From a virus: a stretch of 64,000 nt of DNA. Below, in pieces: positions 3,461-56,819 of this stretch. Under the pieces are notes generated by a model, which was not told where the DNA came from, searched no databases, and was given only the letters and a program-made list of their open reading frames with translations. Position numbers and translations under genes: made by a program. How positions within the stretch are numbered: the first letter of the stretch is position 1; every line of letters starts with the position of its first letter. The DNA lies in the IMG/VR virus record IMGVR_UViG_3300022562_000702, one strand, 5' to 3'.

Positions 3461-3464
3461 AAGC

Positions 3465-41442: not shown

Positions 41443-41934
41443 ATGAGGGATAGACGATTGGGTAGTGGCGGCACGAAAGTCAAAGGACAGAGTGGCGCAG
41501 CAATCTTTTTCACGGATGGTACGTCCGTGCTCCTACTCAAGCGTTCTGATAGTGGGGACAACCCTGACACATGGGCACTCCCCGGAGGGACGGCCAAGCA
41601 AGGTGAATCGGCCATCGGTACAGCAATCCGAGAGACTAAGGAAGAGACTGGGTTGGATTCAATCCCCGGCTATAGGATTGAGTCTCTCGACACAAAGAAT
41701 GGTCGTCAGAAATTCACTGTCTTCATCTATCGTGTCGGCAAGCAGTTCGACATCGATCTCTCCCACGAGCACACCGATTGGGCGTGGGTCAGCTTTGCCG
41801 ATCTTTCTGGCAAAGATTTGCACCCCAAATTTGAGGAACATGTTGATCGCTACCTTCGGGTTGTCCGTCGCAAAATGGGGAGCTTCCAAGAGTGGGTGGA
41901 TCTGACTACCCTGATCGAGCACCGATCTTTATGA
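41443..41934 (+). CDS. NUDIX hydrolase
   Basis: Nudix box GGTAKQGESAIGTAIRETKEETGL. Confidence 0.8.
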   Translation: MRDRRLGSGGTKVKGQSGAAIFFTDGTSVLLLKRSDSGDNPDTWALPGGTAKQGESAIGTAIRETKEETGLDSIPGYRIESLDTKNGRQKFTVFIYRVGKQFDIDLSHEHTDWAWVSFADLSGKDLHPKFEEHVDRYLRVVRRKMGSFQEWVDLTTLIEHRSL

Positions 41935-42296: not shown

Positions 42297-42300
42297 AAAA

Positions 42301-42327
42301 AGCCGACTTGGCTGGGCCAAGTCGGCT
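42301..42327. terminator. bidirectional terminator hairpin (12-bp perfect stem AGCCGACTTGGC/GCCAAGTCGGCT, A6 upstream)
   Basis: Read in the sequence between convergent genes. Confidence 0.65.
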
Positions 42328-42348
42328 TGATTCTCGTAGCACTGACGC

Positions 42349-43956
42349 CTATTTCTGCGGCAAAGGCGTAGCAGGCTTGTTGTCGAGAGGGATCTGGACC
42401 CTTGCGCCCAGATTGTTCATGTCTGTCCACAAGGTTCCCTGCCCGGCGTACAACAACTTGAGATCGACGTTCTCGGGAAGCCCCGTTGCGAAGATCCAGT
42501 TGTTGTAGGCTTGTGGGGTTCCGAAGGCTTGCACTGCCAAACGGAAACGATCCGACTTGGCTTCTTCCTGCAACTGAATGCCGGATTGCTCAGCCTGTCC
42601 CAAGATCTCCTTGGCTTGCGCCTTGAAGGTTGCCGTCTCTTTTTCAATGGCAGCGACAAGCTTGGTGGTTTCGGCACGGATTCCTTCTGCCTCACGGTCG
42701 CCAGCGGCGAGACGTGTCTGAACAAGCTTCTTGGTTTCGGCTTCGACAGTCTTGGATGCCAACTCGACCTTTTGCTCAGCCTCACGCAACGACCCTTCTT
42801 CTTTGGCCGTCAATTGCTCTTGAGCACGGGTCAGCTTCAATTCATCAGCGATGAATGAATTCTGGATTGGCTCACGAACAGTGCGAGGAATGTAGACGTG
42901 TCTCACAAGGCCGTAGAGCAATGTGATCTGCTTTTCATCGAGCACCTGATGAAACTCAGCCAAGCTCTCGCTTTGGTACTTCTCTCGGTCGTTTCCGACC
43001 AGTAGTTGCACAGCCTTGTACTCCGATCCATTGTTGCGACAGATTGACTCAATCTGCGGCAACACAATCTTCTGTTCAACCATTTCGACATTGCCAATGG
43101 TACGCACTGCGTGCGGGGCTTGGTTGGGCATCAGTCCCCAGATCGCCGTGAAGTCCATGTGAATCGAGAACCCGTCGCTTGAAGGGAATTCGATGCCACT
43201 GTTGTCATCAGCGATTTGTGGTTCCCCGGTTTCGGCGTCAACCAGTGGTCTGCCATCCGGTCCACGCTTCACATCCATCTGGATTGTGCTCTGGCGAAAC
43301 CCAATCTCCACGATGTCGATGTTTTGCTCACGTCCGTTGACAGGGTAAATGCCGGGTGGCAACACGTTGTCTTGAATGCCTGTCTTAGCACCAGTCGCAG
43401 GATTTGGAGCCAAATTGGTGACGACGCCAACGTATCCTGTCGGAATCGAGACCCAACCAGCAACCTTCTTCTGATTGCCAGATTCGAACTCCTGAGTTTG
43501 GACGATCTCAACATCGTAGCCGTAAGGGTTGATTCGATATCGTCCGGGATGAAGAACCTTACGCAAGATTCCCTTGTGTTCGGTCTTCCCAATATCGCCT
43601 TCAACCAGATATTCTCCTGCCGGTAGATCTTTCCCCAATTTGCAGGTGACGACTCCAACTTCTCCGGGTTTGATCACAATGTCGGGGACGACTGTGCGTT
43701 CATACCAGATCGGGCAGTAGAAGTGTCTTCCGGGGCCTCGTAGATTGGCGAGGACGCCCATCTGGCCTTCCTCGGCCCACATGCCGGTTTCCGCTTGTGT
43801 GCGAGATCCGAAGATCAGCGGGCCTTTGTAGCGGAGCATCAGGCTTTCACCATCCTCCACATACACACGGTTCACGATCCAATGGAATCCGAGCCCCAAG
43901 AGGAGCAACATGACTCCAAGGACTCCAACGATACTCAACATTGTCTTGCGGTTCAT
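42349..43956 (-). CDS. SPFH/band-7 family membrane protein (HflK/C- or flotillin-like)
   Basis: N-terminal transmembrane helix. GPGRHFYCPIWYER-type SPFH start. C-terminal Ala/Glu-rich coiled coil (EAEGIRAETTKLVAAIEKETATFKAQAKE). Confidence 0.6.
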   Translation of the reverse strand: MNRKTMLSIVGVLGVMLLLLGLGFHWIVNRVYVEDGESLMLRYKGPLIFGSRTQAETGMWAEEGQMGVLANLRGPGRHFYCPIWYERTVVPDIVIKPGEVGVVTCKLGKDLPAGEYLVEGDIGKTEHKGILRKVLHPGRYRINPYGYDVEIVQTQEFESGNQKKVAGWVSIPTGYVGVVTNLAPNPATGAKTGIQDNVLPPGIYPVNGREQNIDIVEIGFRQSTIQMDVKRGPDGRPLVDAETGEPQIADDNSGIEFPSSDGFSIHMDFTAIWGLMPNQAPHAVRTIGNVEMVEQKIVLPQIESICRNNGSEYKAVQLLVGNDREKYQSESLAEFHQVLDEKQITLLYGLVRHVYIPRTVREPIQNSFIADELKLTRAQEQLTAKEEGSLREAEQKVELASKTVEAETKKLVQTRLAAGDREAEGIRAETTKLVAAIEKETATFKAQAKEILGQAEQSGIQLQEEAKSDRFRLAVQAFGTPQAYNNWIFATGLPENVDLKLLYAGQGTLWTDMNNLGARVQIPLDNKPATPLPQK

Positions 43957-43993
43957 TCTGTGTCTCCTGTTCTATGTTCTGAGCCGGTGAGGC

Positions 43994-45589
43994 TTAGTTG
44001 TTGGGTTGAGGTTGAGGCTGAGTTGGCTGCTGAGTCGGCACAAACCCTTCAAACACCCGCATCAACGGAGAGTCAGCGGTGTTCGTCATGATCTGCCGAT
44101 AGCCGGGAGCGAGCTTCTGATACAACACATAGCGAGCAAACGCCTCACCATCGTTCCCCAGAGCTTCCACAGCTTTCTTCCAGCCTGCGGCCTGAGCGAC
44201 GTTCTCGAAGCCGATGATTGCGGCTTCTGCCTTCGCTTTGGCGAGAATTGCTTCAGCTTGATCTTTGGCCGCTGCCAACTCTTTCTCTGCAACTTCTTTG
44301 TCACGGTTGGCGTTTTCCAAAGCCACGCTTTGCTCTTCGTTGGCCTTCGTCACAGACTCCACAACGCTCTTGTCAGCACCGACGAGTTCTTGCCGTTGTT
44401 TGATCATGGCCTGTTCGGTCGCCAGCTTCGCTTCTTCGCTTTGCTGGAGAATCTGTTGTGTGTACTGTTTCAATTCCTGAGCAGCCACTTCTCGATCTCT
44501 CAGCGGGCCAGCGATGGCTTCCGGTGGTTTGATCTTCGTGATCAGGGCTTGGATGATCTCGATGCCTTGTGCGTCACAGGTCTCCGTAATGGACTTTTGG
44601 AACGCTTGTTGGAAGGCAGTACGAGTATCGCCGCCGATGAACTCACGAGCGGACGAGTTGGCTCCTTGCAAACGACAGAAGGCCCGAGCGTTCGGCATGA
44701 TCACCTTGGAGATGATTTCGTCTGCAATCGCACTGGAATCCCCCTTGTCATTGCTTATATCGTTGTAAGTAACGTATGTGTTGGCGGCGGTATCAGGCTT
44801 CACTCGAAATTCGATGATGCCATCCAGTGTAATTGGAAAGCCGTCCTTCGATGGGAACATCATGTCCCCGCCTTCGGCCAAGTTGAATCGCTGTGAGCGA
44901 GTATCGATGGCGTTGATGCGGTACATGTATGGATTCAGATAGTATGTCCCTTCATCGAGGGTCTTTTCCTGTGGCCCACGTTCGCCCGCCCCGACAAGCA
45001 GGACATTGGGTTCTTTCGGCATTGGGCCAGCAAGATTCGTGACGATTCCTTTGTAACCAGCGGGAATGATCTTCGGCTCCCACAGTTCAATCACTTCAAC
45101 ATAGTCCGATTTCTTTCGGGGCGTCCCCACTTCTTGCTTCGTCTCTTTGTCGATCACGATGGCATTGATGGCGTAACGACCGGGGCGAAGCACTTCTTCG
45201 ATGATCCCTTTTTGGTCCTCTGTCTTGGCAAGGAAATCGCCGGGCGGAAGGTCTTCGCCATACATGCGGATGCGAACGCCCATTTTGTCCCGAGGGATCT
45301 CGATCATCGGATAGACCGACCAGTCCCATGTCCAGCAATTGCGGAAGTAACGCCCTTCTGGCAGGACTGCGAGTTGGAGACCTTTGTGCTTGGCATCCGG
45401 GGCCACTTCTTGTTCGTTGTCGATGTTATCGCCAGTCTTGCGAGTCAAGACGGCGAAGTGCTTTGCGGGCACATCAATGCGGAACTGCTTGTAGACGATG
45501 TATGCTCCGAAGGTCAGCAAAATCACCATCACGCTGAGGGCCATCAGGCCGATTCTTCGCACACTTCGTTGTGTGTCACGATAAGTCAT
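43994..45589 (-). CDS. SPFH/band-7 family membrane protein, paralog of the preceding gene
   Basis: Same architecture: N-terminal transmembrane helix, LPEGRYFRNCW, C-terminal coiled coil AKLATEQAMIKQRQEL...AAAKDQAEAILAKAKAEAA. Confidence 0.6.
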   Translation of the reverse strand: MTYRDTQRSVRRIGLMALSVMVILLTFGAYIVYKQFRIDVPAKHFAVLTRKTGDNIDNEQEVAPDAKHKGLQLAVLPEGRYFRNCWTWDWSVYPMIEIPRDKMGVRIRMYGEDLPPGDFLAKTEDQKGIIEEVLRPGRYAINAIVIDKETKQEVGTPRKKSDYVEVIELWEPKIIPAGYKGIVTNLAGPMPKEPNVLLVGAGERGPQEKTLDEGTYYLNPYMYRINAIDTRSQRFNLAEGGDMMFPSKDGFPITLDGIIEFRVKPDTAANTYVTYNDISNDKGDSSAIADEIISKVIMPNARAFCRLQGANSSAREFIGGDTRTAFQQAFQKSITETCDAQGIEIIQALITKIKPPEAIAGPLRDREVAAQELKQYTQQILQQSEEAKLATEQAMIKQRQELVGADKSVVESVTKANEEQSVALENANRDKEVAEKELAAAKDQAEAILAKAKAEAAIIGFENVAQAAGWKKAVEALGNDGEAFARYVLYQKLAPGYRQIMTNTADSPLMRVFEGFVPTQQPTQPQPQPNN

Positions 45590-45667
45590 GGAATTCTCCT
45601 TGGGTTTTGTTCTGTGTTCGGTTTCAGTTTATCTCTTTCGACATGGGTTGCTGCGGCAGCCTCCTTT

Positions 45668-47416
45668 CTACTTGAACTTGATTCTGTAGAGTTTGCTACC
45701 ACGAGCAAAACGAGCTTCCGTGCCAACGTGACACAGCCGCATGTCTGATTCGATGGCGGGGTCATCAACCGATTTGATGTCGGGACGATCTTTCTTCGCC
45801 GAGAAGACCTCGATCTTTTCGTCTTCGGTGAGAGAAATAACGATTCCATTCTCCAACACGGTAAAGTTGATACCGGTGGGTGCGATGTTCTCCAGCTTGC
45901 GGAGATCATGGCTCGCCCAGTCCGTGGCGAATCTGTACACAAAGCGGTCATACTGACCAGATTCTTTGTGCATGGCAACAATCATTAAGACGTTGCCTTC
46001 GTACTTGGCCTCAGTTATACGGTATTCTTTAATTTCGTCAAGACGAATCTGGCGGTGGTGGCCTGCTGCGGGGAAGATCGACGCAACGTAATTGCCCATC
46101 ATGTCTTGGATCGCCACCCCCTGATACATCTCGGTGGCGTTCGGCAAGATGGTGGCGACCGACTTAGGCGCAGCTATCACCGTTGACCCCGCTTCGATGA
46201 AGTCAATCTCAAAGATGTGGTCGTTGCTCTGAACATACACTCGGCCTTCGCTGCTCATTAAAGTCTTGCCGAGCAGACCAACTTTGATGGGGGAGTCGCT
46301 GTCCAGATCTTGCAGGTGCAAAACTTCATCGTCGAGCCATGCAGCATAAGGAATGTTCCTGCTGGGCGTGAACCCAACACGGAACCTCTCAGCCGGGCGG
46401 TTCAGTTGTTTGCCACCGATATGCAACTTCTCACGAGTCACAACAACTTCTCGGCCATTGTGAGCATAGAAGCCAATGATCTGTTCGGCAAATTGCTTCA
46501 GTTCTGTGATGTCGAAGTTGTTGCTGCCGATGATCTCTTTCACCTTTGCCACGAAGGTCAGAATGGCTTGGAAGTCCTTCGGCGCAGCCGCACGTCGATT
46601 TTCGTTGAAGACGGCTCGATACCACTGCATGTAAGCACCGTCTTTGCCGCCCGGAATGTAATCCTCGAACGGACAGTAGACAGCACCTTTTGGATAATCG
46701 ACTTCAGGAAGCAAGACGGATTTGCAGTGTTGCATGTTGTCCGTCAACATCGTCTTCATGTTTGTGTAGTCCGGGTGGAACCCTTTGAAGGGGTGGATGC
46801 CGGTGAACATGTAGAAGCTGATGATGGCGAACGAGTACCAGTCCGAGAGTTCTGTAAACAGATAGCGGCCTGTCCCATCTTTGGCGACATGCCAATCTCG
46901 GATCGACGGCATGATGACTTCGGCGGGATAACTGGGTGTTTGGTAGCTGTTGGTGTCGATGCCATAGACATCATCGAAGGTGTCGGGCACCATGTAGTTG
47001 AACTCGTTCCCGTCCACTTGGAGGTAGCCTTTGTGGCTGTGGATGAATCGCACGATGCCAGCGATCTTCTGAACCAGCTTCATCATGTGATCTGGGGTAA
47101 CGCCTTCACGTTCACGGAAGGTCTTTGTGAGAATTTGGGCGAGCGGTTTGGGGTTGCCGGGGACGGCTCGCATGGTGTAGCCAGTGGGCTTCTTGCGATA
47201 AAGCAGCGTCTCTTGTGGAACGATGATGTTGGGGTGATCCAACACTCGAAGTTCTTGGAATTTGCCGGGCGGAATCATCTTCCCGTCTTCGCAAACCTTG
47301 TAGACAACATCACCGATGATGTAGATCGACCCTTCGCCACCCTTCGCTTTGAAGTGGGTATCATTGAGTTCAACTTTATCGCCGGTTCGTTCAATCGTAT
47401 AAGTAGGCATCACCAC
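45668..47416 (-). CDS. protein kinase-like domain protein (atypical)
   Basis: Gly-rich loop KGGEGSIY, followed by VYKV. Catalytic-loop-like VDGNEFN (D-x4-N). 582 aa. Confidence 0.4.
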   Translation of the reverse strand: MVMPTYTIERTGDKVELNDTHFKAKGGEGSIYIIGDVVYKVCEDGKMIPPGKFQELRVLDHPNIIVPQETLLYRKKPTGYTMRAVPGNPKPLAQILTKTFREREGVTPDHMMKLVQKIAGIVRFIHSHKGYLQVDGNEFNYMVPDTFDDVYGIDTNSYQTPSYPAEVIMPSIRDWHVAKDGTGRYLFTELSDWYSFAIISFYMFTGIHPFKGFHPDYTNMKTMLTDNMQHCKSVLLPEVDYPKGAVYCPFEDYIPGGKDGAYMQWYRAVFNENRRAAAPKDFQAILTFVAKVKEIIGSNNFDITELKQFAEQIIGFYAHNGREVVVTREKLHIGGKQLNRPAERFRVGFTPSRNIPYAAWLDDEVLHLQDLDSDSPIKVGLLGKTLMSSEGRVYVQSNDHIFEIDFIEAGSTVIAAPKSVATILPNATEMYQGVAIQDMMGNYVASIFPAAGHHRQIRLDEIKEYRITEAKYEGNVLMIVAMHKESGQYDRFVYRFATDWASHDLRKLENIAPTGINFTVLENGIVISLTEDEKIEVFSAKKDRPDIKSVDDPAIESDMRLCHVGTEARFARGSKLYRIKFK

Positions 47417-47545
47417 GCCCTTTCCGACACTTTGTCAGGTAGAAACCGTTTCCACAACCAGTAGTCCAACGCCTTATTCAAGGTGGACTTTTTCCAAGGC
47501 GGCTTCTTCCCGTCAGGCAAGAAGAGCCACCGTTTGTAGATCTTC

Positions 47546-48160
47546 TTAGCCTGTCTCCGTTTCATGATATCCGTAGAGTCCTCCGTTCTTGATGTAATCC
47601 CACACCTTGGAGTCAAGGTGCGCCGCAGCGAAGTCGTTGCGGCCTTCCCGGATCGCTGTACGAATATCGGTGGAACTGGCGTCGTTCTCGAAATCGAAGA
47701 CCTGATGTGGCTCGTGATTGAACCAGTCTGCCGTTTCGGGACAGCCATCCCGCCTGAGAACGATGAAGGGGAACTCTTGGATCAACAGATTTCCGTGAAT
47801 CCACTTCGTTTCGATGATGTTGGCATTGTCCATGCCAATGACGATGTGGAACTTGACATCTGGATACTCTTGCACGAGTTGCTGCATGGTCGAATACATC
47901 GACCCGTCGTGCCGGTGTGCGATCTCCCAGTCGAAGGCTCGCATGATCTCCCAGTCTTCACATGCCAAGGTGAGCATATTCCAACGATGGGATGATTCGA
48001 TGAGTTCAGAGTCCTTGCTGAAGAGGTGGCGATAGCAAGGCATGATCCATGTGGGGAGGCCGGTCTTTTGAAAGACCAAGCGTGCCATCAGTTCGTGGTG
48101 CAGTCCCGTGGGGTTGCATCCGCTGCCGAAGATCGCCGCCTCACCCTGTCGGATTCTCAT
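47546..48160 (-). CDS. nadD: nicotinate/nicotinamide mononucleotide adenylyltransferase
   Basis: FGSGCNPTGLHH (GxFxPxHxxH nucleotidyltransferase motif) and the SSTDIR motif (ISSTxIR of NadD). Confidence 0.6.
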   Translation of the reverse strand: MRIRQGEAAIFGSGCNPTGLHHELMARLVFQKTGLPTWIMPCYRHLFSKDSELIESSHRWNMLTLACEDWEIMRAFDWEIAHRHDGSMYSTMQQLVQEYPDVKFHIVIGMDNANIIETKWIHGNLLIQEFPFIVLRRDGCPETADWFNHEPHQVFDFENDASSTDIRTAIREGRNDFAAAHLDSKVWDYIKNGGLYGYHETETG

Positions 48161-49172
48161 GGATCACTCCTACTGCCACATCGTCTCCATTGAGCCAGTT
48201 GCGGCGGCGGAAAGTTCCCGCCTTGTCTTGTCGAAAGACCCAGTTCGATTGCAGTCTGGCGAAACCGGGCCGCACCGTCACAAAGTCCAGTAAGACACGC
48301 AACACGTCCAGCACACAGACAGGCTCGTTGTATTTGCGTCGAGGCGACTTCACGGGAATGTAAAACGCCTCGGGGCCATCCGAGCAGATGAACGTGAATT
48401 CGTAGTCATCTGCTGGGAAGACAAACTCATTGTATGGCTTGATTACTGAGAAGTTTTGCTCTTGGGTCGAAAATGTTACATGATTCGACCAAGCTCCCAT
48501 ACGCTCCTTAGAAGACGGCGGCTGGTCGGCCCATTCTGGAAATTCCATCTCCGGGCTGCGGATGTTCCCGAAGTAGGTGTGAATCTTGTATGTCTGCCCG
48601 AACTGCTCAATCCATTTCGGTGTTTCGCCGAACATCTGGTACTTGAGGTAGTATGGCCCACCGGGAAACTCAACGACATGAATCTTCCAGCGGCCATCAC
48701 GACGCCTTCCGCCGACAACACCATCGCCAACCAACAGGGCTCTATGGGAGTCGCCGACTTTGCGAAGAGTCCCCAGCGTGGCCGTCAGGCAAGCATCAGG
48801 AAGATTGGGGAATGCTCTCTGTTGGGTGCGGGACGTTGCCGACACGCCTTGCAGGAAGGCTTCTACGTTGTCTTGATAGATGTGCTCTTCTGCGGCCTTC
48901 GTCAAGATGCGTGACCCGAAGTCGGTGTGAATGCGAGGGCCACCAGCATTGGAACAACCATCTGAGATGATCGCATAGTCGCCACCATGAACAGCATAAT
49001 CTTCGCACACTTCGTGCGTTGTGCCTTGAACAAAAAACGAGTCTGTCAACATGGTAGTTTCTCCTCGACATACGGGGCAGAGCCAATCGCTCTCCCCGCT
49101 GTCCGTTCCATCAGAGATGAGTTTGAGATCGCTGAACGTCAGTCCGCAGGAATCGCACTGATCAGTCTTCAT
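48141..49172 (-). CDS. hypothetical protein with N-terminal zinc ribbon; possible PP2C-type phosphatase
   Basis: CDSCG...CPVCRG zinc ribbon. ISDGCSNAGG and KVGDSHRAL resemble PP2C DGHGG and GDSRA motifs. Confidence 0.3.
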   Translation of the reverse strand: MKTDQCDSCGLTFSDLKLISDGTDSGESDWLCPVCRGETTMLTDSFFVQGTTHEVCEDYAVHGGDYAIISDGCSNAGGPRIHTDFGSRILTKAAEEHIYQDNVEAFLQGVSATSRTQQRAFPNLPDACLTATLGTLRKVGDSHRALLVGDGVVGGRRRDGRWKIHVVEFPGGPYYLKYQMFGETPKWIEQFGQTYKIHTYFGNIRSPEMEFPEWADQPPSSKERMGAWSNHVTFSTQEQNFSVIKPYNEFVFPADDYEFTFICSDGPEAFYIPVKSPRRKYNEPVCVLDVLRVLLDFVTVRPGFARLQSNWVFRQDKAGTFRRRNWLNGDDVAVGVIHENPTG

Positions 49173-51234
49173 GGTCGTCCAGTGTCCTTAGCCAAGCAGC
49201 CGGGGACGCATCAGACGGCATTCTCCAGTCGCCACGAGGCGACAGGCTGACTGTTCCGACTTTTGGTCCATCAGGCACATCGTTCCGCTTGTATTGCTGA
49301 GCAAAGGCACGTTTGATGTTGACTCGCAACCAATGCTCCAGAGTGTGTTCGTCGTACTCACCTTCCCATCCCTCGGCTTGGAGACCGAGGTAGAGAATCT
49401 TCGCTGGGCTGAATCCGTTGCGGACGAAGTAGAACATCACGAAGTCATGGATCTCATAAGGTCCGATGGTCTCTTCGGTCGATTGTTCGATTTCGCCATC
49501 CGTACCGGCAGGCAGCAATTCGGGAGAGATTGTGGTGTGGGCGATGTCCATCAGCGTGACATATACTGGGTCGCCATCGAATCCCTGATGCGGCGGTTCG
49601 CCACCCTCTGTCTCGGCGATGTATTCGACGAGGAACTTCACCAGCGTCTTTGGCACAGAGCAGTTCACGTTGTACATGGATTGGTGGTCGCCGTTGAATG
49701 TACACCAACCCAACCACAATTCCGACATGTCGCCGGTGCCCAAAACGAAACCGTGGGACATCAGCACCAGCGTCCGTTGTCTTGCTTGCACATTCTCGAA
49801 GACGAGATCCCCTTTGTCCTTCTGCTCTTGCGAGAGATGGGCTAGAGCATCCACGAGGCATTCGACAGTGAAGTTTTCGAGATCGACGCTGGCATCAAAC
49901 ATGCCCATGCCGAACGGGTCGTGTCCAATGTCTTTGAAGACCTGCAAGCACGCCGGGCGAATATCGATTTCCTTCTGGGAGATTTCCAGAACATCCATCA
50001 GTCGCTTGGCGTTCTCCAGAGTCTTGTTGGTTGTGCCGAAGCCGGGCATGGTGATGCCCAGAATGTTCTTGCGAGGCAGGCCAAGCATGTCGAACGTCTT
50101 CACGGCAACCATGAGAGACAACGTGGAATCGAGTCCGCCCGAGATGCCAATTACAACTTTTGGATCAGGGCCGAGTTGTTCGAGCCGTTTCGCCAGAGCA
50201 CAAGTCTGGATGCCGAAGATCTCTGCACAACGAGAGTGCAACGTCTTCGGATCTTTGGGCACAAATGGCCGGGCATCGATCTTTCGCAACAATGGCGAAT
50301 CCATGTGATTCAACTTGAAGCTGACGTTCCGCTGTGAGTGCCCGGCCAGATATCGACGACCCTCGTTATAGCTGGTTGTGGTTCGTCGCTCTGTGTGGAG
50401 CTTCTCAACATCCACATCGGTTGAGGTCCAATAAGAGCCTCGATTTGGTGTCTTGCCGTTGCCTACTCGGTCGCTCTCGACCAACATGTGCCCGCCTTCT
50501 GCGATCAAACAGTGCCCGCCGAAGACAAGATCAGAGGTGCTCTCTGTGGGGCCGCAGCTTGCGTAGGCATAGGCGGCAACGCAACGGCCCGACTGCCCAA
50601 TCACCAGATTGCGGCGATAGTCGGGCTTGCCGATGGTTTCGTTGGACGCCGATGGATTCAAGAGAATGTTCGCCCCGGCGATGGCACTGAAGCTGGATGG
50701 CGGGATTGGCATCCAGATCGCTTCGCAGATCTCGATAGAGACGACGGCTTCGTGGGCATCCCCGACCGGGGCACGGAACAAAAGGTCTGTCCCAAACGGG
50801 ACGCTCCACTCTCCGAACTGAACACGAGTGTTTCGGTCGTTACGAGCCGAAGCAAACCAACGACCTTCGTAGAACTCGTTGTAAGTCGGGATGAATTCTT
50901 TCGGAACAAGGCCGATCACCCTGCCATCATGAAGCACGGCGGCACAGTTGTAGAGGGCGTTCTCGACTCGGAAGGGAAGTCCAACAACCACCAGTTCGTT
51001 GTTGACGTGTGACGCCAATTCGATGACGTTCTCGACGGCGGAATCGAGCAGTGCCTTCTGGTGAAACAGCTTGCCGCATGTGTAACCGGTGATGTTCAGT
51101 TCCGGGAACAGCACAATATCAGATTGAAGCTGCTCCAAGATGCGTGCCACTTCCGCCGTATTGGCGTCAGGATCGGCAACGACGATCTTGTTTGAGACAG
51201 TGGTTACTCGGACAAAGCTGTGGTTGGAGTTCAT
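49162..51234 (-). CDS. nadE: glutamine-dependent NAD+ synthetase (nitrilase domain + PP-loop synthetase)
   Basis: N-terminal carbon-nitrogen hydrolase domain (IVLFPELNITGY). C-terminal GISGGLDSTLSL PP-loop. A start at 51234 is preferred. Confidence 0.8.
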   Translation of the reverse strand: MNSNHSFVRVTTVSNKIVVADPDANTAEVARILEQLQSDIVLFPELNITGYTCGKLFHQKALLDSAVENVIELASHVNNELVVVGLPFRVENALYNCAAVLHDGRVIGLVPKEFIPTYNEFYEGRWFASARNDRNTRVQFGEWSVPFGTDLLFRAPVGDAHEAVVSIEICEAIWMPIPPSSFSAIAGANILLNPSASNETIGKPDYRRNLVIGQSGRCVAAYAYASCGPTESTSDLVFGGHCLIAEGGHMLVESDRVGNGKTPNRGSYWTSTDVDVEKLHTERRTTTSYNEGRRYLAGHSQRNVSFKLNHMDSPLLRKIDARPFVPKDPKTLHSRCAEIFGIQTCALAKRLEQLGPDPKVVIGISGGLDSTLSLMVAVKTFDMLGLPRKNILGITMPGFGTTNKTLENAKRLMDVLEISQKEIDIRPACLQVFKDIGHDPFGMGMFDASVDLENFTVECLVDALAHLSQEQKDKGDLVFENVQARQRTLVLMSHGFVLGTGDMSELWLGWCTFNGDHQSMYNVNCSVPKTLVKFLVEYIAETEGGEPPHQGFDGDPVYVTLMDIAHTTISPELLPAGTDGEIEQSTEETIGPYEIHDFVMFYFVRNGFSPAKILYLGLQAEGWEGEYDEHTLEHWLRVNIKRAFAQQYKRNDVPDGPKVGTVSLSPRGDWRMPSDASPAAWLRTLDDHED

Positions 51235-51247
51235 TGGGGTTCCTCTC

Positions 51248-51796
51248 TTAACCGTATGTGGGTTCGCCAAGATCGTATTCTGGTTCGTCGTCGTCGTCGT
51301 CGTCGTGATGGCCGAGTTCGCCGAACCGTTGTTCGAGTTCGGCACGCAATTCAGCAGGCAGGTCTTCCGGGTTGATCGGGATCATTCCGCCCCGACCTTC
51401 ACGAATGGCTTGTTGGATATGAGGCGGCAGCATGTGGAAGGGTGGAATCCCCATCACCGCTGTCATGATTCGTCCCCAGCGACCGGTCTGCGTGTGGATG
51501 GTGTCGAGGTCATCGACACGCACATAGAACTCGATCTCGCTTGCTTCCCATTCGTCGGTTGCCAACATCACCTTGAACGTCACAAGAGGGAAGACCCCTT
51601 CAATGACTTTTAGGTTGCTGGTAATCAGGCCGTCAAACCCCCGTCCCTTGATCCGCTGCGAAGTGCGACCATCTTCGAACATATCAACGGCGTTGTACAT
51701 GAGGATGTCACAGACTCGTGGAGTCAATGGCTTCCCAGTGTTGATCATGCAGTAAATGCCACCATGTCGTTCGGGGTCAGGGGTGAAGCCGCTCAT
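51248..51796 (-). CDS. hypothetical protein with poly-Asp C-terminus
   Basis: ORF between nadE and the Nudix gene. Internal start chosen to avoid overlap. Confidence 0.4.
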   Translation of the reverse strand: MSGFTPDPERHGGIYCMINTGKPLTPRVCDILMYNAVDMFEDGRTSQRIKGRGFDGLITSNLKVIEGVFPLVTFKVMLATDEWEASEIEFYVRVDDLDTIHTQTGRWGRIMTAVMGIPPFHMLPPHIQQAIREGRGGMIPINPEDLPAELRAELEQRFGELGHHDDDDDDEPEYDLGEPTYG

Positions 51797-52311
51797 TAGT
51801 CTCGTCTCCAAAGCTGTTTGAGGTAAAACAACACCTGATGGATCGGAATCCATGTCCGTTGATCTTCCGATTGTACCAGTGCTGCTAACTCATCCAAGGA
51901 AACCCATCGCCATCCTTTGCATTTCTTGGGCTCAAGTGGTTCGATCATTTCTTCGTCACCCTTCTTCTTCAGGGTGCCGCCGTGAAGGTAGTCGGCGATC
52001 AGGTAACATGTCACATAGATCGCCGAACCATCTGTTGATTTCTTCAGAATGTCATACGTCGTGAACAGGTCTTGGCGGTAGTGGTCGGGACTGAAGACCC
52101 GACACACCATGCCCGTCTCTTCTAAGACTTCACGTTCGCCGCAGTGAGCGAGGGTCGCATCAGTTGGATCGATATGCCCACCGGGAAAGGCATAGAGGCC
52201 AGCACCATGACTGCCTTGTCGCTCTCCAATCAAAACCTTCTGGCCTTTGACGACAATGACGCCGACACCGGCTTTGACTTGTGGTTCGACTTCTTTCTTC
52301 TTCTTCGTCAT
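51796..52311 (-). CDS. NUDIX hydrolase (candidate ADP-ribose or NADH pyrophosphatase)
   Basis: Nudix box GGHIDPTDATLAHCGEREVLEETGM. Confidence 0.8.
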   Translation of the reverse strand: MTKKKKEVEPQVKAGVGVIVVKGQKVLIGERQGSHGAGLYAFPGGHIDPTDATLAHCGEREVLEETGMVCRVFSPDHYRQDLFTTYDILKKSTDGSAIYVTCYLIADYLHGGTLKKKGDEEMIEPLEPKKCKGWRWVSLDELAALVQSEDQRTWIPIHQVLFYLKQLWRRD

Positions 52312-52613
52312 GGCAGCACCAATCTAATCAAGCTGAAAGCGACAATGTAGACGATTACAGGGAACAGAACGTGCATCGCCACAACGTGTTTGATTCCGGG
52401 GAATTGTCGAGCCCAATCTTCGTCGCCGTTCACGGCCCGCAGTCGTCTCTGCCAACCTCCGGGCGAGTTGAACCTGATGTCGTCCCACAGACACCGGAAA
52501 GGCAGTTCCCAGCCGCCCATGCCGCCGTTGATGAAGCATTCCAGTCCGTAGACCAGATACCACACTCCGAAGGCGATGATTGCTGCAAAGGCGACTGACA
52601 TTGTTACCACCAT
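52308..52613 (-). CDS. small membrane protein
   Basis: Two hydrophobic helices. Confidence 0.3.
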   Translation of the reverse strand: MVVTMSVAFAAIIAFGVWYLVYGLECFINGGMGGWELPFRCLWDDIRFNSPGGWQRRLRAVNGDEDWARQFPGIKHVVAMHVLFPVIVYIVAFSLIRLVLP

Positions 52614-52807
52614 AAAAGTTTCCAGAGGAATTTGATCGCAACGAGCATAGCCAACAAGACGATTACGACCAGCAGGCAACCGAAGCAACCGCTACCATCG
52701 CCGTCGCCGTCGTCATCTTTGTCTTCCTGCGCCGGTGGCGGTGGGGCCATCGTGGCAGTGCTCTTTCCATTTCCGTTGAATCGGTTTAGTCGAGGGTCAG
52801 GCTGCAT
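52604..52807 (-). CDS. small membrane protein
   Basis: C-terminal hydrophobic helix CLLVVIVLLAMLVAIKFLW. Confidence 0.3.
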   Translation of the reverse strand: MQPDPRLNRFNGNGKSTATMAPPPPAQEDKDDDGDGDGSGCFGCLLVVIVLLAMLVAIKFLWKLLWW

Positions 52808-54035
52808 GGTCTAACGGTGTCCCAAAGAAAGTCCAGTTCGCCACTCGTCGTGCATCGGGATCGCCGATTTGTTTGCCGGGCACATCGCTGAGCTTCACCA
52901 CCGGCACGCCCATGACCGACCACAATTTGATGACCATGTTGAGTGCCTTGCACTCGGGGAAGTCATTGGTCAGATGTGTGCCGATGCCGAAGGCTGTTTT
53001 GATCTTGCCTCGGAAATACTTCTCGATTTTCGCCGCCAACTCAGAGTCCAATCCGTCGCTGAACACAATTGTCTTCCCAAGCGGATCGATTCTCTGGCTG
53101 ATGTAGTGGTCAATGACCTGATCGCCGAACTTGTATGGGTCAGCGGAATCATGTCGCACACCGTCGAAAGCCCGTGCCAGCATTCCGACGAAATCGCCGA
53201 AGAATGCTTTGGTTCCAAAGGTGTCGGTCAGTGCGATACCCACTTCGCCGTTGAATGTTTCCATCCAGTCTTCGAGGACATAGCGGTTGGCATGACGCAA
53301 ACCACGCAGAACCGAATAGCCCATGAACATCTCGTGTGCCATCGTGCCGATGGGTTTCAGGCCATGTTTCATCGCCATGTGAACATTGCTGACGCCGACA
53401 AACTTGGGGTGGCACTCCTTGAGGGTGCGAACCACCAAATCCTGAACGTCATAGCTGTGTCGCCGACGCAGGCCAAACTCTGCCAAGATGCACGCTTGGA
53501 GGATCTCAGCTTTTGCCTTTGTCCGCTCCATGTAGCGGGTGGCCCAGTCGCCTTGTCGCCAGCTTGTCTCGCAGTGCTCGAAGAACAGTTCTGAGATCAA
53601 AGCCATGACGGGGACTTCCCACATCATGGCTGTTTCCCATGGACCTTTGAAGAAAGCCTCAAGCTCGCCTTCTGGTGTCAGTCGTGCTTCGACCTGTGAG
53701 GGGTCGTAACGAAAGTTCTTGATGAACTGGAGGAAGTGTGGACGGAGCCACGGCATTTCCTGATGGATGAAGTCCACTTCATCGTCACGAGTTCGCAGTT
53801 CTCCCATCGCCCGGATTTCCCGGTTGAAGGCATTCATGAATCCTTCGTTGAACTTCCCTTCGGGCCGACGATTGTTGAACCGGAACTCGACGGGCACTCC
53901 CGGATGGTGGCGAAGGATATTCGCACACATGTTGTACTTGTAAACATCTTGTTCAAGATTTGACCGGATAATGCTCATCATGTCTCCATCCCAAAATTTG
54001 TACTGAAGCGTCCCCGGAGGGACTCGAACCCTCAC
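52797..54035 (-). CDS. pncB: nicotinate phosphoribosyltransferase
   Basis: QDVYKYNM (PncB TDAYK..M motif) and GPWETAMMWEVPVMALISE (PncB GPWRE..LWEVPLLAVISE). 412 aa. Confidence 0.75.
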   Translation of the reverse strand: MRVRVPPGTLQYKFWDGDMMSIIRSNLEQDVYKYNMCANILRHHPGVPVEFRFNNRRPEGKFNEGFMNAFNREIRAMGELRTRDDEVDFIHQEMPWLRPHFLQFIKNFRYDPSQVEARLTPEGELEAFFKGPWETAMMWEVPVMALISELFFEHCETSWRQGDWATRYMERTKAKAEILQACILAEFGLRRRHSYDVQDLVVRTLKECHPKFVGVSNVHMAMKHGLKPIGTMAHEMFMGYSVLRGLRHANRYVLEDWMETFNGEVGIALTDTFGTKAFFGDFVGMLARAFDGVRHDSADPYKFGDQVIDHYISQRIDPLGKTIVFSDGLDSELAAKIEKYFRGKIKTAFGIGTHLTNDFPECKALNMVIKLWSVMGVPVVKLSDVPGKQIGDPDARRVANWTFFGTPLDHAA

Positions 54036-54083
54036 TCAGAGATTTAGAATCCCTTGCTCTAACCAATTGAGGCATACGGGGAC
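54009..54083 (-). tRNA. tRNA with anticodon CUA (amber-suppressor type); D-arm slightly non-canonical
   Basis: Folds by hand into a cloverleaf. Acceptor stem GTCCCCG/CGGGGAC, with U8. T-arm GAGGG-TTCGAGT-CCCTC. Anticodon stem AGGGA/TCTCT with loop TTCTAAA. D-arm GC(C)TC-AATTGGTTA-GAGC with one bulged C. No encoded CCA. Confidence 0.5.
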
Positions 54084-54115: not shown

Positions 54116-54844
54116 TCAAAACGTCAGCGATTGCGAAGGGCCACCGCTGCCGAGGGCTTGCGACTGACTCTGAACGCTGGCACTGATGAAGTTCGCCAGC
54201 TTGGCGAGCGTCTTCTCGTTGGCGTCCGAGAGCGGAACGTACTGCGTGTACCCCACGGCCTGTGCGTGCCGCTTGAGTTCGGCTTGCACTCGGGCATCGT
54301 CGTTGACGCCGATGAGGATCGACATCACCGATTCGAGGGCTTCGCAGGACACCGCATCAGCCATCGCCTGAACGGCGGCGTCTTCCACGATGTTCTGTCC
54401 CGGAGTGTAGTGGGCACCGTCTGTGATTCCGTAGATGATCCCGTTGACCATATACCGCTTCGCAGCTTGCTGCTCGGCGTAGTCGATCATCGCACGGAGC
54501 ACGTTCTCTTCGCACCCGTACAAGTTGGTGCAACCACCGCCAGCCCAGCAACCGTCGTAGTCGTCTTCGTGACAATCGACTTGCGGCTTGTAGCCGTGGA
54601 ACTCACGGACCTGATCGTCGAAGTGGACTTGCCGATAGAGCAGTTTGTCGGCGACCGGCGAGTGTCGGAGGGACTTGACCACTTCCTTGATGCAGAGTTC
54701 CATCTGGCGAGCGTATCTGCGGGTTGAACCGCTCTCGTCGAAGAACGCCGTGGCGATGGTGTTGTCCACGTTGGTCAGGTCGTCAATGGGCGTCCCGGTG
54801 TAACCGAATCCGCCGCCCGGAATTGTGAAACTTTGCGAAGTCAT
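54116..54844 (-). CDS. von Willebrand factor A (vWA)-like domain protein
   Basis: MIDAS-like FFDESGST (DxSxS) and a later GITDGAHY. Confidence 0.4.
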   Translation of the reverse strand: MTSQSFTIPGGGFGYTGTPIDDLTNVDNTIATAFFDESGSTRRYARQMELCIKEVVKSLRHSPVADKLLYRQVHFDDQVREFHGYKPQVDCHEDDYDGCWAGGGCTNLYGCEENVLRAMIDYAEQQAAKRYMVNGIIYGITDGAHYTPGQNIVEDAAVQAMADAVSCEALESVMSILIGVNDDARVQAELKRHAQAVGYTQYVPLSDANEKTLAKLANFISASVQSQSQALGSGGPSQSLTF

Positions 54845-54903: not shown

Positions 54904-55881
54904 TTACGCCTTCAGTTCACGGATCAGGTCGTTGGTCTTCATCACCCGAGCACCTCGGTTGACCATCTCGTCCAAGAAGTCGAGACGCCACTGTCCGAAG
55001 TCGGGACCACCGGGCACGTTGCCCACAGGAGCCGAGGCATCTTCGACGAAGACACACTTGGTGATGAATTCGTTCTTCTTGCCTTTCGCTTTGTCTTCGT
55101 CGGTCGGCTCGAAGAAGTCCACGGCGTCGAGGCCGGTCCACTTCAGGCAGTGGCTCCCTGCCCAGCCGGTCCAGATAACGAGGTCTGCCCGCATCACGTT
55201 CTGGACGCACGGAGCATTCATCTGGGTTGCCGGAACGGTCGGATCGGGCACGTCGGCCTTCAGGGCGGAATAGTGTTCCGTCCACTGGAACTGGCCTTTG
55301 GTGATCCAGTCGATCCAGCCGCCAGTGCGACGAGTCCAACGACTGTACGCATCCATGAGCGGCTTGTAGACCTGATTGCCCCATGTGCCGATCAGGCAGT
55401 GGGCGGGCCACAAGCAGAGTGGGTTGCGACCGAAATCTTCGAGGGCCTTCGTGTACTTGAGAGCCCATTCGAGCGGAGCGACCTTCTTGCCTTCCCACAC
55501 GCCGTAGGCGAAGTTCGGCACGAAGTTCTGAGCCACCACGTCGGCGTGAGTGACGATCTGGAACGGGTTCGCCATGTTCCCGGCTCGATCTTGCCAGACG
55601 TTGTTGTGGGCACCATCGTTCTCGTGGTGGCAGTCGAGCGACGGGTGGATCTGATCGATCCGATGGCGACGGGAATCGGCAGGGTCGGCGAGTTCGTCGA
55701 TCAGGCGGGCGACGTTGAACGCTTCCTGATCTGCACCAACGACTTGTAAGGCCCCCGGTCTTGGTCCATTACCCGGCGAAGGCCAATCTGCGGGTTCGTT
55801 GCCACTGGCACAGAAGTCGTTCTGTCCGTCAATGACGAACATATCGACTCGTTTCGCATTGCGAAAGAAGCTGTCCGACAT
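54904..55881 (-). CDS. pncA: isochorismatase-family hydrolase, likely nicotinamidase
   Basis: VDMFVIDGQNDFC (D-x-QNDFC motif of the PncA/isochorismatase family). A candidate catalytic Cys in GSHCLKW. 325 aa, longer than canonical PncA. Confidence 0.5.
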   Translation of the reverse strand: MSDSFFRNAKRVDMFVIDGQNDFCASGNEPADWPSPGNGPRPGALQVVGADQEAFNVARLIDELADPADSRRHRIDQIHPSLDCHHENDGAHNNVWQDRAGNMANPFQIVTHADVVAQNFVPNFAYGVWEGKKVAPLEWALKYTKALEDFGRNPLCLWPAHCLIGTWGNQVYKPLMDAYSRWTRRTGGWIDWITKGQFQWTEHYSALKADVPDPTVPATQMNAPCVQNVMRADLVIWTGWAGSHCLKWTGLDAVDFFEPTDEDKAKGKKNEFITKCVFVEDASAPVGNVPGGPDFGQWRLDFLDEMVNRGARVMKTNDLIRELKA

Positions 55882-55943: not shown

Positions 55944-56522
55944 TCAGGAGCGTAAAGCAGAAATGGCAGGTTGCAGATCGTCCCAGACGCTCTTTTTAGC
56001 GGAGGGCTGCCTCAGAAGGTAAGATGGGTGATATGTGCATGTGACCTTTCGGCCTTCGTATTCGTGGGTTTTCCCTCGCAAAGAGCCGATTGTGGTGTCT
56101 GGTTCTTGCCCTAGTAGGAAAACCGAAGCGATCCGCCCAAAACAGATGATCCATTTGGGATCAACGCATTTGATCTGCATATCAAGAAATTTTCGGCAGT
56201 TTGCGGCTTCCTCGGGTTTGGGGTCTCGATTCCCCGGTGGGCGGCATTTCAGGATGTTGGCGATGAACACGTCATCTCTTGTCCACCCTGCCGCCGCAAG
56301 AATGTTGGTGAGAAGCTGACCAGCTTTCCCCACAAATGGGACGCCTTGCTCAGCCTCATTCTGGCCGGGAGCCTCACCAAGCACGAACAGGTCGGCGTTA
56401 GCATTGCCGACTCCGGGAACTGTTTTCCAGCCGCTTGCAACCCTCAGTTCTGAGAGTTCTTGGCACAATGTACAGTTCGCAATCTTTTGGTCCAAAATTT
56501 GTAATGCTTCGCTTTTCAGCAT
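55944..56522 (-). CDS. family-4 uracil-DNA glycosylase
   Basis: GEAPGQNEAEQGVPFVGKAG and HPSYLLR motifs. Confidence 0.85.
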   Translation of the reverse strand: MLKSEALQILDQKIANCTLCQELSELRVASGWKTVPGVGNANADLFVLGEAPGQNEAEQGVPFVGKAGQLLTNILAAAGWTRDDVFIANILKCRPPGNRDPKPEEAANCRKFLDMQIKCVDPKWIICFGRIASVFLLGQEPDTTIGSLRGKTHEYEGRKVTCTYHPSYLLRQPSAKKSVWDDLQPAISALRS

Positions 56523-56543
56523 CCTTGCTCTCCAAATGAAAAC

Positions 56544-56561
56544 GGCCCTCCGAAGAGGGCC
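56544..56561 (-). terminator. rho-independent terminator on minus strand (GGCCCTC/GAGGGCC stem, T-run on the minus strand)
   Basis: Read in the sequence. Confidence 0.5.
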
Positions 56562-56567
56562 ATTGTA

Positions 56568-56819
56568 TTAGTCGGAATCAACGTAATCAATCCCGAATGG
56601 ATCGTCGTCGCCGTCCTTCCACCAGTCGGCGGGGTCACGGTTTTTTCGTTTGCGTTCTTTTTGTTCTTCCTTGAGTTCTCTGAAAGCCGCTCGAAGAGCA
56701 CATGCGTTGACGACGTGTCCCAACAGTAAGCCGATGCAAATTCCAATGATCAAAAACAAAAATCCGTCAGACATCCTTGTCCCCTTCTTTCCTATAGAGC
56801 TTCCGGCACTCCTTTGCAA
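56568..56819 (-). CDS. small membrane protein
   Basis: Hydrophobic segment FLFLIIGICIGLLLGHVV. Confidence 0.3.
   Translation of the reverse strand: MQRSAGSSIGKKGTRMSDGFLFLIIGICIGLLLGHVVNACALRAAFRELKEEQKERKRKNRDPADWWKDGDDDPFGIDYVDSD

Follow-up and report, generated by a model that had tools for sequence, protein, structure and literature searches.

Two genes for SPFH/Band_7 membrane proteins lie directly beside genes for a protein kinase and a PP2C-type phosphatase in a phage genome, and it can be asked whether the four encode a single signalling unit. The question is raised by positions 42,349 to 49,172 of a 64,000-nucleotide (nt) stretch of viral DNA (IMG/VR record IMGVR_UViG_3300022562_000702), referred to below, at its full length, as the window. 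An earlier note on this DNA had grouped the SPFH pair, the kinase, the phosphatase and a more distant von Willebrand factor A (vWA) protein as one such module. What it had observed is confirmed, down to the exact placing of the open reading frames (ORFs) on the minus strand (SPFH-A, 42349-43956; SPFH-B, 43994-45589; kinase, 45668-47416; nadD, 47546-48160; PP2C, 48141-49172), and its interpretation is partly supported. Kinase, PP2C and vWA protein do belong to a conserved module, but their constant partner is a nicotinamidase, PncA, and not the SPFH pair. This partner had been overlooked, as had the Preiss-Handler pathway of nicotinamide adenine dinucleotide (NAD+) synthesis whose genes are interleaved with the module.

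A four-gene cassette in huge phages and bacteria

The genes of the cassette are found in the window at the following positions (aa, amino acids; MIDAS, metal-ion-dependent adhesion site).

54904..55881, minus strand: nicotinamidase PncA, 325 aa, with inserts
54116..54844, minus strand: stand-alone vWA protein, 242 aa, MIDAS residues invariant, with a conserved C-terminal tail ...FISASVQSQSQALGSGGPSQSLTF
48141..49052, minus strand: PPM/PP2C phosphatase, 303 aa from M41; the longest ORF reaches to 49172
45668..47410, minus strand: Hanks-type Ser/Thr kinase (residues ~1-290) with a C-terminal beta-propeller (~300-580); the ORF extends to 47416, the start being probably the ATG at 47410

Around kinase relatives (28-58% kinase identity), 79 viral loci were fetched and scanned iteratively with the window proteins, and viral counts are given for the 73 loci that hold at least 6 kb upstream of the kinase gene. 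PP2C is encoded in 73/73 of these loci, vWA in 72/73 and PncA in 70/73, all four genes being present in 70, mostly in the order PncA-vWA-PP2C-kinase and with a median gap of 22 nt between the stop-to-stop frames of PncA and vWA. The trio singled out by the earlier note is thus a conserved module. At least one other NAD gene (PncB, NadE or NadD) lies within 10 kb in 38 loci. As for the phage carrying the window, its genes include those for tail sheath, baseplate hub, sheath stabiliser and neck/adaptor protein, and orthologs of window genes are carried by contigs of 250-693 kb; it is a huge T4-like myophage. Only three GenBank phage records, all from uncultured huge phages of 462-595 kb, hold relatives, and no DNA similarity to the interval 42349-49172 was found among GenBank phages.

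The cassette is also found in bacteria. A scan of one genome per GTDB species gave 80 loci, some of them on multi-megabase contigs, in metagenome-assembled genomes (MAGs) of Armatimonadota, Acidobacteriota, Myxococcota, Desulfobacterales, Thiotrichales, Spirochaetota and others. Of the MAG loci, 47 reach 4 kb or more upstream of the kinase gene; PncA and vWA are both encoded in 42 of these, and all four proteins in 38. On a 3.84-Mb Capsulimonadaceae chromosome of uniform high GC, the four genes are contiguous (locus L086, 7314-11656; loci are designated by such numbers below) and are flanked by an ATP-grasp/Alpha-E pair, an AAA_21 ATPase, RlaP, RtcB, polyphosphate kinase (ppk1) and rpoC; flanks are likewise of non-phage type at L125, L159 and L136. 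That all MAG copies are mis-binned phages is ruled out for these four loci by their flanking genes, and could still hold for short contigs. In four Capsulimonadaceae loci pncB directly follows the kinase gene, and a cultured bacterium, Variovorax sp. SRS16, carries PP2C-kinase(propeller)-pncB on its 801-kb replicon 'plasmid 2' (L167, NZ_LR594667.1 609967-625337). Viral and genomic sequences are interleaved in the kinase tree. All these results show that the conserved unit consists of PncA, vWA, PP2C and the propeller-bearing kinase, and that it is shared by huge phages and bacterial chromosomes.

Some neighbours of the bacterial copies deserve mention. The cassette lies a few kb at most from the RNA-repair ligase RtcB in two Armatimonadota chromosomes (L086 13299-15396, together with RlaP, and L136 800-2083), and genes nearby in the same or other bacterial loci code for an AbiEii-like AAA_21 ATPase, a C5 DNA methylase, a transposase or a patatin, a setting that resembles a defence island. 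The genes around the Variovorax locus are mostly hypothetical, with AlkB, a MazG-like pyrophosphohydrolase and a NADAR protein among them, and have a jumbo-phage-like look; 'plasmid 2' was not among the 12 matches listed in a tail-sheath tblastn search. Two sister Variovorax strains show the same PP2C-kinase-pncB arrangement.

Conserved neighbourhood does not by itself imply a common function, and the four genes could be held together by inherited synteny in one huge-phage lineage, with occasional transfer of the block to bacteria and no functional coupling. In the close clade, Nudix genes, a gp13-like gene and the gene of a 1150-aa protein are indeed syntenic as well, and the labels that assign metagenomic contigs to phages or bacteria are imperfect. 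We nevertheless hold this explanation to be very unlikely: the four genes stay together while their bacterial flanks differ completely, all surroundings vary among phage loci whose kinases are 28-40% identical, and small or overlapping gene junctions are common.

The proteins of the cassette

The kinase had been described in the earlier note as atypical. Taken singly, the window sequence matches Pkinase of Pfam with 15.8 bits against a cut-off of 31.7 (E 0.009) and gives nothing usable among PDB sequences, but many of its orthologs have a precomputed PF00069 match, and a profile of 56 orthologs matches 215 PDB kinases (best E 3.6e-6). The Gly-rich loop (G24-G27), K38, E53, D133, N138 and D152 are invariant across these 56 sequences; as no Arg precedes the catalytic-loop Asp, the kinase is of the non-RD type. 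In an AlphaFold2 (AF2) model (pLDDT 92, pTM 0.89), a kinase domain at the N-terminus is followed by an all-beta one of about 28 strands at the C-terminus. With Foldseek, the former half is matched to PDB kinases (TM-score of 0.5-0.63, normalised to the target) and the latter to 7- or 8-bladed propellers (clathrin terminal domain, BamB, G-beta). The kinase has 639 full-length relatives, and one UniProt viral protein displays the identical full-length kinase-propeller architecture. The protein is therefore a kinase, by its fold and its invariant catalytic residues, as had been proposed, but its core is not atypical, and a C-terminal propeller of about 280 aa had been missed. Judged from sequence and model, it is a catalytically competent-looking, cytoplasmic, Hanks-type kinase; no transmembrane (TM) helix was found by a hydrophobicity scan of the kinase, PP2C and vWA proteins.

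The PP2C protein shows a similar discrepancy between single-sequence and other evidence. The window sequence reaches PP2C_2 of Pfam with 20.6 bits against a cut-off of 24 (E 3.5e-4), and most of its orthologs have a precomputed PF13672 match. Residues D18 (in ED), D31-G32, D225-G226 and D290-D291 are invariant in 56 sequences and include what we take to be the metal-binding Asp of PP2C motifs 1, 2, 8 and 11. In Foldseek, the AF2 model (pLDDT 97) has only PPM phosphatases as top matches (tPphA, PppA, PstP, Stp1), with a probability of 1.0 for most. The PP2C-like ORF of the earlier note is thus, by its modelled fold and invariant Asp, an active-looking PPM phosphatase, although the 'GDSxRA' pattern by which it had been recognised lies in a non-conserved stretch, the conserved motif being a GDG eight residues downstream.

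Translation of PP2C probably starts at M41 (position 49052), as in the public gene call. In the longest ORF, 40 extra residues (49053-49172, minus strand) carry a zinc-ribbon-like CxxC-x22-CxxC pattern, and the ATG of this ORF overlaps the nadE stop codon. A zinc-finger match of the long ORF among PDB sequences was rejected, since it stems from this N-terminal extension, which is absent in the related phage locus L004 and in the public gene call; besides it, the single PP2C sequence has no usable match in the PDB.

The vWA gene lies 4.9 kb from the PP2C gene, in keeping with the 5 kb given previously, and encodes an intact MIDAS motif (DESGS...T...TDG), of which D36, S40, T106 and D142-G143 do not vary across 54 orthologs. 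Pfam gives no match for the window protein itself; among the 54 orthologs, VWA_2 is matched in 17 (best 3e-5) and VWA in 12 (best 2e-6), and a vWA profile run against the PDB finds the alpha2-delta VWA domain weakly (E 0.16). The most conserved part of the protein is its tail, with the consensus LAKLAxFVSxSISSQSQALGTGGPSQSLTF extending up to the C-terminus, and phage and bacterial copies resemble each other in it. When 1.84 billion representatives were searched exhaustively, 680 relatives were found (136 at E <= 1e-30); the best 150 of the 680 are nearly all 240-260 aa long, and most of them align through residues 238-242 of the 242-aa query.

PncA keeps the catalytic residues D18/K195/C245 and the metal ligands D83/H85/H161 invariant in 52 orthologs. 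The profile of these orthologs finds yeast Pnc1 at E 3e-17, as well as other nicotinamidases, and the residues align with the Pnc1 motifs DxQNDF, DWH, WPVHC, DKG and YCV. On this sequence evidence, the 325-aa protein is a genuine member of the nicotinamidase family, with predicted activity.

A kinase with intact catalytic residues in a phage could also be a broad counter-defence or host-takeover kinase like T7 gp0.7, the PP2C limiting damage to phage proteins, the vWA protein acting as a chaperone or adaptor, and the NAD genes being incidental. Promiscuous phosphorylation by phage kinases can disarm many defences (PMC13645617), and a prophage kinase-kinase-phosphatase module controls lysogeny and defence (PMC11341870). 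Yet bacterial chromosomes carry the same cassette as an operon that has no phage genes around it, and pncA is linked to it in 70/73 phage and 42/47 MAG loci; the propeller and the invariant vWA tail moreover suggest, in our view, a dedicated partner. We consider a takeover kinase to be decidedly unlikely.

The gene array, its NAD+ genes and the SPFH pair

The five minus-strand ORFs of 42349-49172 make up the 3' portion of a longer co-directional array, whose 14 genes run from 56522 to 42349 (~14 kb). Its order, 5' to 3', is uracil-DNA glycosylase (UDG), PncA, vWA, tRNA, PncB, two small TM ORFs, Nudix, a 201-aa protein, NadE, PP2C, NadD, kinase, SPFH-B and SPFH-A. The NAD+ genes and the elements that bracket the array are listed here.

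52797..54035 (ORF), minus strand: nicotinate phosphoribosyltransferase PncB (NAPRTase 197 bits)
51796..52311, minus strand: Nudix hydrolase
49162..51345 (ORF), minus strand: glutamine-dependent NAD+ synthetase NadE (NCBIfam PRK02628, 787 bits against a cut-off of 473), start probably near 51234
47546..48160, minus strand: NadD-family nicotinate-mononucleotide adenylyltransferase (NadD-family models, E 1e-23)
56562-56590, minus strand: promoter-like site just upstream of UDG
56541..56564, minus strand: terminator-like hairpin at the upstream edge of the array, just before UDG
42300..42328, minus strand: strong intrinsic terminator with a 13-bp stem, 8 GC pairs and a T run, closing the array directly 3' of SPFH-A

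In the phage of the window, pncB, the Nudix gene, nadE and nadD are interleaved with the genes of the cassette. Together with PncA, the products of pncB, nadD and nadE are predicted to make up a complete route from nicotinamide to NAD+ (Preiss-Handler), so that nadD, which separates the kinase and PP2C genes, belongs to the picture and is no interruption. The 5' end of the pncB ORF overlaps a tRNA, and its start is therefore probably near 53981. A second, different Nudix hydrolase is encoded at 41443-41934 on the plus strand, the two flanking the region, and one of the two matches the PADLOC candidate PDC-S07 (E 1e-7); NADH, ADP-ribose or mutagenic nucleotides are candidate substrates of both.

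The junctions of the array are tight, with overlaps between nadE and PP2C and between PP2C and nadD and remaining gaps of 37-129 nt, and no terminator of a strength comparable to that of the closing one was found inside it. Tight junctions, bracketing terminators and the lack of a strong internal one make it plausible that the array is co-transcribed as an operon.

The last two genes of the array are the SPFH genes.

43994..45589, minus strand: SPFH-B, 531 aa, a paralog with the architecture of SPFH-A
42349..43956, minus strand: SPFH-A, 535 aa, with an N-terminal TM helix, a ~130-aa insert, a Band_7 core (170-386) and an Ala/Glu-rich coiled-coil region

The description of two SPFH paralogs of about 530 aa holds. 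Band_7 (PF01145) is matched by SPFH-A and SPFH-B with 76.5 and 101.3 bits against a gathering score of 23.6 (E 3e-21 and 8e-29), and PHROG 200 is matched too; each protein has one N-terminal hydrophobic helix (19-mer window, Kyte-Doolittle 2.3-2.5) and a stretch of about 100 aa rich in Ala, Glu, Lys and Gln (55-60% AEKQ), the coiled coil being judged from composition alone. At 25% identity (E 2e-28), the two are old, diverged paralogs. The HflK/HflC-like label that had been given to them is not borne out by NCBIfam, none of whose models, HflK/HflC equivalogs included, matches either protein at E <= 0.01; some public sources give orthologs of the pair just the generic COG name 'HflC', and the single sequences find nothing usable among PDB sequences. 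HflK and HflC are modulators of FtsH and form a hetero-oligomeric cage that encloses it. With them and with other bacterial SPFH pairs, the window pair shares its paralogy and, in each protein, an N-terminal anchor, an SPFH core and a coiled-coil region; unlike HflK/HflC, its members are ~530 aa long, with the insert placed before the SPFH core, and lack an equivalog match. Single SPFH genes are already known in the large T4-like phages 44RR, Aeh1 and RB43 (PMC1524935; PHROG 200).

The closest relatives of the pair are cellular. SPFH-B has 1260 relatives, and all named ones belong to Planctomycetota. In Gimesia alba, a member of this phylum, a tandem pair is found in the same order, its first gene being 69% identical to SPFH-B and its second 68% identical to SPFH-A, both along their full length; in this species and in Aeoliella mucimassa, the SPFH-B homolog is the first gene of a tandem ~540-aa Band_7 pair. 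Planctomycete tandem pairs (L165, L166) stand in ordinary chromosomal contexts, which differ from each other, and the window pair is orthologous to this planctomycete-specific tandem pair of unassigned function. A crude neighbour-joining tree splits the phage SPFH copies into two or more groups, with cellular copies interleaved among them. Such an identity, and the affiliation of all named relatives, indicate that the SPFH pair is a host operon carried by the phage, and its origin makes a planctomycete the probable host of this phage clade. The possibility raised earlier, that the pair might be an acquired host gene fragment, was thus half right: by sequence comparison it is a host capture, but one of full-length, conserved genes and not of a fragment.

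The SPFH pair is intact in the window and kept in the relatives L001, L004, L007 and L038, whose kinases are 53-61% identical to that of the window, and it is missing in the close relatives L003, L005, L006, L009 and L010. An SPFH gene of any kind lies within 10 kb of the kinase gene in 8/73 viral loci and near it in none of the MAG loci; adjacent pairs occur in five of the fetched viral loci, a further one being cut short. Four distant huge-phage loci have non-orthologous single SPFH genes, 21-25% identical to the window pair, upstream of the cassette (L040 1994-3757, L041 2150-3970, L047 880-1896, L067 7386-8381), and in L067 the SPFH gene directly adjoins the vWA gene.

These data bear on the proposal that the SPFH pair, kinase, PP2C and vWA protein form one membrane-microdomain signalling unit, in which an SPFH cage would bring the kinase and the phosphatase to the host membrane. 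The genes are co-directional and, given gaps of 37-129 nt and no strong internal terminator, probably co-transcribed, and SPFH genes of other origin stand beside the cassette in L040/L041, L047 and L067. The proposal is at odds, however, with the 8/73 viral and zero MAG loci, with the absence of the pair from relatives such as L005 and L006, with the pair being a near copy of a stand-alone host operon found in unrelated chromosomal contexts, and with the lack of a TM helix in the kinase, PP2C and vWA proteins. By our own estimate, which was not computed, a co-occurrence of ~10% is about the chance level for one SPFH gene per ~300-kb genome. We therefore give this proposal very little credit, and regard the SPFH pair as a part of the array, probably co-transcribed with it, and not of the conserved cassette. 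The array accordingly has three layers with separate histories: the four-gene cassette, the Preiss-Handler genes inserted in this lineage, and the captured SPFH pair. Most likely, SPFH-A and SPFH-B would form a hetero-oligomeric, membrane-anchored cage of the HflK/HflC type, acting independently of the cassette, which could stand in for or reinforce the host complex during infection.

The remaining features of the array are a glycosylase, a protein of 201 aa and a tRNA.

55944..56522, minus strand: UDG, first gene of the array
51248..51853, minus strand: 201-aa protein without family match, kept only in the closest relatives
54008..54083, minus strand: suppressor-type tRNA, anticodon CUA (Rfam tRNA, 38.8 bits), between the vWA gene and pncB

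A CUA tRNA is found at this very place in the relatives L001 (3193-3269) and L004 (3092-3166), and L003 has an ochre-type tRNA (UUA; 6809-6882) just after its vWA gene. TAG ends 7/50 long ORFs of the window, those of SPFH-A and the kinase among them; read-through would lengthen SPFH-A by 66 residues and the kinase by 12. In L001, a GIY-YIG/NUMOD3 homing-endonuclease-like gene (3364-4044) is inserted between the suppressor tRNA and pncB. Two small ORFs of 126 and 67 aa between the Nudix gene and pncB (52308-52807, minus strand), putative genes with strong hydrophobic helices, have no family match. Just upstream of the array, a Thg1-like tRNA-His guanylyltransferase is encoded (56792-57634, minus strand; Pfam Thg1, E 6e-28), an unusual tRNA-maturation/repair enzyme for a phage. 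The 1150-aa protein (34675-38127, minus strand), whose gene adjoins the gp13-like neck gene, is kept in close relatives and has no Pfam or PHROG match.

Related systems and a proposed role in NAD+ salvage

By its architecture, the cassette appears closest to TerY-P among described systems, and could be seen as a TerY-P-like triad coupled to the first enzyme of nicotinamide salvage. In the TerY-P triad, which has been proposed to be a metal-sensing phosphorylation switch, a TerY-like vWA protein and a PP2C are joined by a Ser/Thr kinase that bears a zinc ribbon at its C-terminus (Anantharaman, Iyer & Aravind 2012, as cited in a passage of PMC11090510). A variant whose kinase has an OB fold has antiphage activity (Gao et al. 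2020, as cited in the same passage). In both cassettes, a MIDAS vWA protein is co-encoded with a separate PP2C and a separate Hanks kinase, the two enzymes looking active and the kinase bearing an accessory domain at its C-terminus; both cassettes are mobile, occur in varied contexts and are proposed to act as phosphorylation-dependent switches. They differ in the accessory domain of the kinase, which is a beta-propeller here and a zinc ribbon in TerY-P (an OB fold in the variant of Gao et al.), in the near-constant nicotinamidase as a fourth member, and in that the present cassette is carried not by bacteria alone but also by huge phages. The cassette flanks examined showed no ter genes. PADLOC returned no TerY-type match for the kinase or for the 54 vWA and 56 PP2C orthologs, though the presence of TerY-P models in that PADLOC release was not confirmed; it gave no meaningful defence-family match for the vWA and PP2C orthologs, and just faint PD-T4-6 and mad6 matches for the kinase.

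Similar sets of proteins are met elsewhere. In the PpkA/PppA pathway of type VI secretion systems (T6SS), assembly of the machine is governed by a Hanks kinase together with a PP2C and a vWA domain; in PpkA, this vWA domain is periplasmic and forms one protein with the kinase. Our PP2C model has PppA among its best structural matches, but the proteins of the cassette are cytoplasmic and separate, and no Fha or T6SS genes accompany them. In actinobacteria, neighbourhoods of a kinase, a PP2C and a stand-alone vWA protein are tied to GAP1-N2 GTPase systems (Kaur et al. 2020, PMC7159879). As in our cassette, an active kinase, often fused to a beta-strand-rich domain, adjoins genes for an active PP2C and a stand-alone vWA protein; the cassette, which belongs to other taxa, has PncA and NAD genes instead of a GTPase partner. 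The vWA 'ternary systems' of the same authors were ruled out as relatives, being vWA-MoxR/NTPase systems, and their side remark on kinase-PP2C-vWA alone is relevant here (PMC7159879).

The NAD+ genes have their own precedents. A Preiss-Handler cluster of pncB, nadD and nadE has been described in jumbo phages (Li et al. 2024, PMC11662467); as in the window, these genes are clustered on a phage genome, and their presumed role is NAD+ supply or counter-defence against NADases. Kinase, phosphatase, vWA and SPFH proteins are not mentioned in that description. NARP1-3 are validated phage systems of NAD+ reconstitution, which recycle ADP-ribose, convert nicotinamide to nicotinamide mononucleotide (NMN), or use PnuC/NadR (Osterman et al. 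2024, cited second-hand; PMC13464706), and NARP1 and NARP2 both require nicotinamide (PMC13464706). None of the enzymes that define NARP1, NARP2 or NARP3 is among the 14 array genes, the route here being PncA-PncB-NadD-NadE, whose role in counter-defence is a presumed one. No published description of the PncA-vWA-PP2C-kinase combination was found in the open-access literature, and the cassette is not mentioned in the Aravind-lab survey of viral NAD+/ADP-ribose systems. What is new in the cassette is thus its propeller-bearing kinase and its tie to a nicotinamidase, triads of this kind and the pncB-nadD-nadE cluster being already known.

Taking all our results together, we find it fairly probable that the cassette is a phosphorylation-controlled NAD+ salvage system, accompanied in the window by interleaved Preiss-Handler genes and by a separate, host-derived SPFH pair. 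The kinase and the PP2C look competent and are always paired, so that they are most simply read as a reversible phosphorylation switch. Nicotinamide salvage is suggested as the controlled process by the constant nicotinamidase, by the repeated adjacency of pncB and by the interleaved Preiss-Handler route. The target of the switch could be the vWA protein, and there most plausibly the conserved tail, this invariant Ser/Gln/Gly-rich segment being a candidate kinase substrate or propeller ligand; the propeller might serve in docking or sensing. NAD+ salvage from nicotinamide would then be gated by the state of the vWA protein, nicotinamide itself being set free when NAD+ is cleaved by NADase defences of the host or by NAD-consuming enzymes of the phage. 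In a phage, salvage would rebuild NAD+; in bacteria, it could serve homeostasis or defence.

Several points weigh against this reading. Gene order in phages can persist by descent alone, and about half of the phage loci have no NAD gene besides pncA within 10 kb. No PP2C is detectable in 9/47 MAG loci, and the Variovorax variant has neither PncA nor vWA next to its PP2C-kinase-pncB genes. The non-orthologous SPFH genes beside the cassette in four distant loci leave room for a weak SPFH link. As the vWA and PP2C proteins have no PADLOC match, the TerY-P analogy is architectural only, and the substrates assigned to the cassette are ones that we infer from sequence.

A quite different use of PncA could be imagined if the cassette were a TerY-P-like system of defence or superinfection exclusion, in which the kinase switch, on sensing infection, frees PncA to destroy nicotinamide and thereby blocks the nicotinamide-dependent NAD+ reconstitution of a rival phage. 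TerY-P-like triads can be stand-alone antiphage systems (Gao et al. 2020, as cited in the above passage of PMC11090510), NARP1 and NARP2 would be deprived of the nicotinamide they need (PMC13464706), the cassette is mobile across several phyla, and bacterial copies lie near an AbiEii-like AAA_21 ATPase, RtcB/RlaP, a C5 methylase, a transposase or a patatin. The position of pncB after the kinase gene in several bacteria and the full NAD+ route interleaved in the window indicate NAD+ building, however, and not destruction of nicotinamide; the cassette has no toxic effector domain, the vWA and PP2C proteins match no PADLOC defence model, and the matches of the kinase to PD-T4-6 and mad6 are faint. 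A defence system of this type thus appears unlikely to us.

A bolder version of phosphorylation-controlled salvage, which we put forward tentatively and believe in less than we doubt it, is that the cassette is an unrecognised mobile 'NAD+ guard'. As a phosphorylation switch, it would detect infection or the cleavage of NAD+ and start or stop the salvage of nicotinamide, and bacteria and huge phages would use it on opposite sides of an arms race over NAD+ depletion. If true, it would be the first regulated, and not constitutive, NAD+ reconstitution system, and a fourth phage route, by way of Preiss-Handler. The depletion of NAD+ by host defences and its rebuilding by phages form an active front, on which NARP1-3 are simple two-enzyme routes, with no regulator to our knowledge.

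The SPFH result, a huge phage with a near-copy of a two-gene membrane-scaffold operon of Planctomycetota, is smaller than that on the cassette; it names a likely host phylum for an uncultured clade and gives a handle on the role of the conserved planctomycete pair. The tie between cassette and nicotinamidase holds across dozens of huge-phage lineages and in chromosomes of several bacterial phyla, often with pncB or the full Preiss-Handler route, and the Variovorax locus could serve as an experimental handle on it. If this coupling is functional, bacterial Ser/Thr phospho-signalling would be linked to NAD+ homeostasis, a TerY-P-like triad would have found a function, and a candidate for a fourth, regulated route of NAD+ reconstitution would be at hand for testing.

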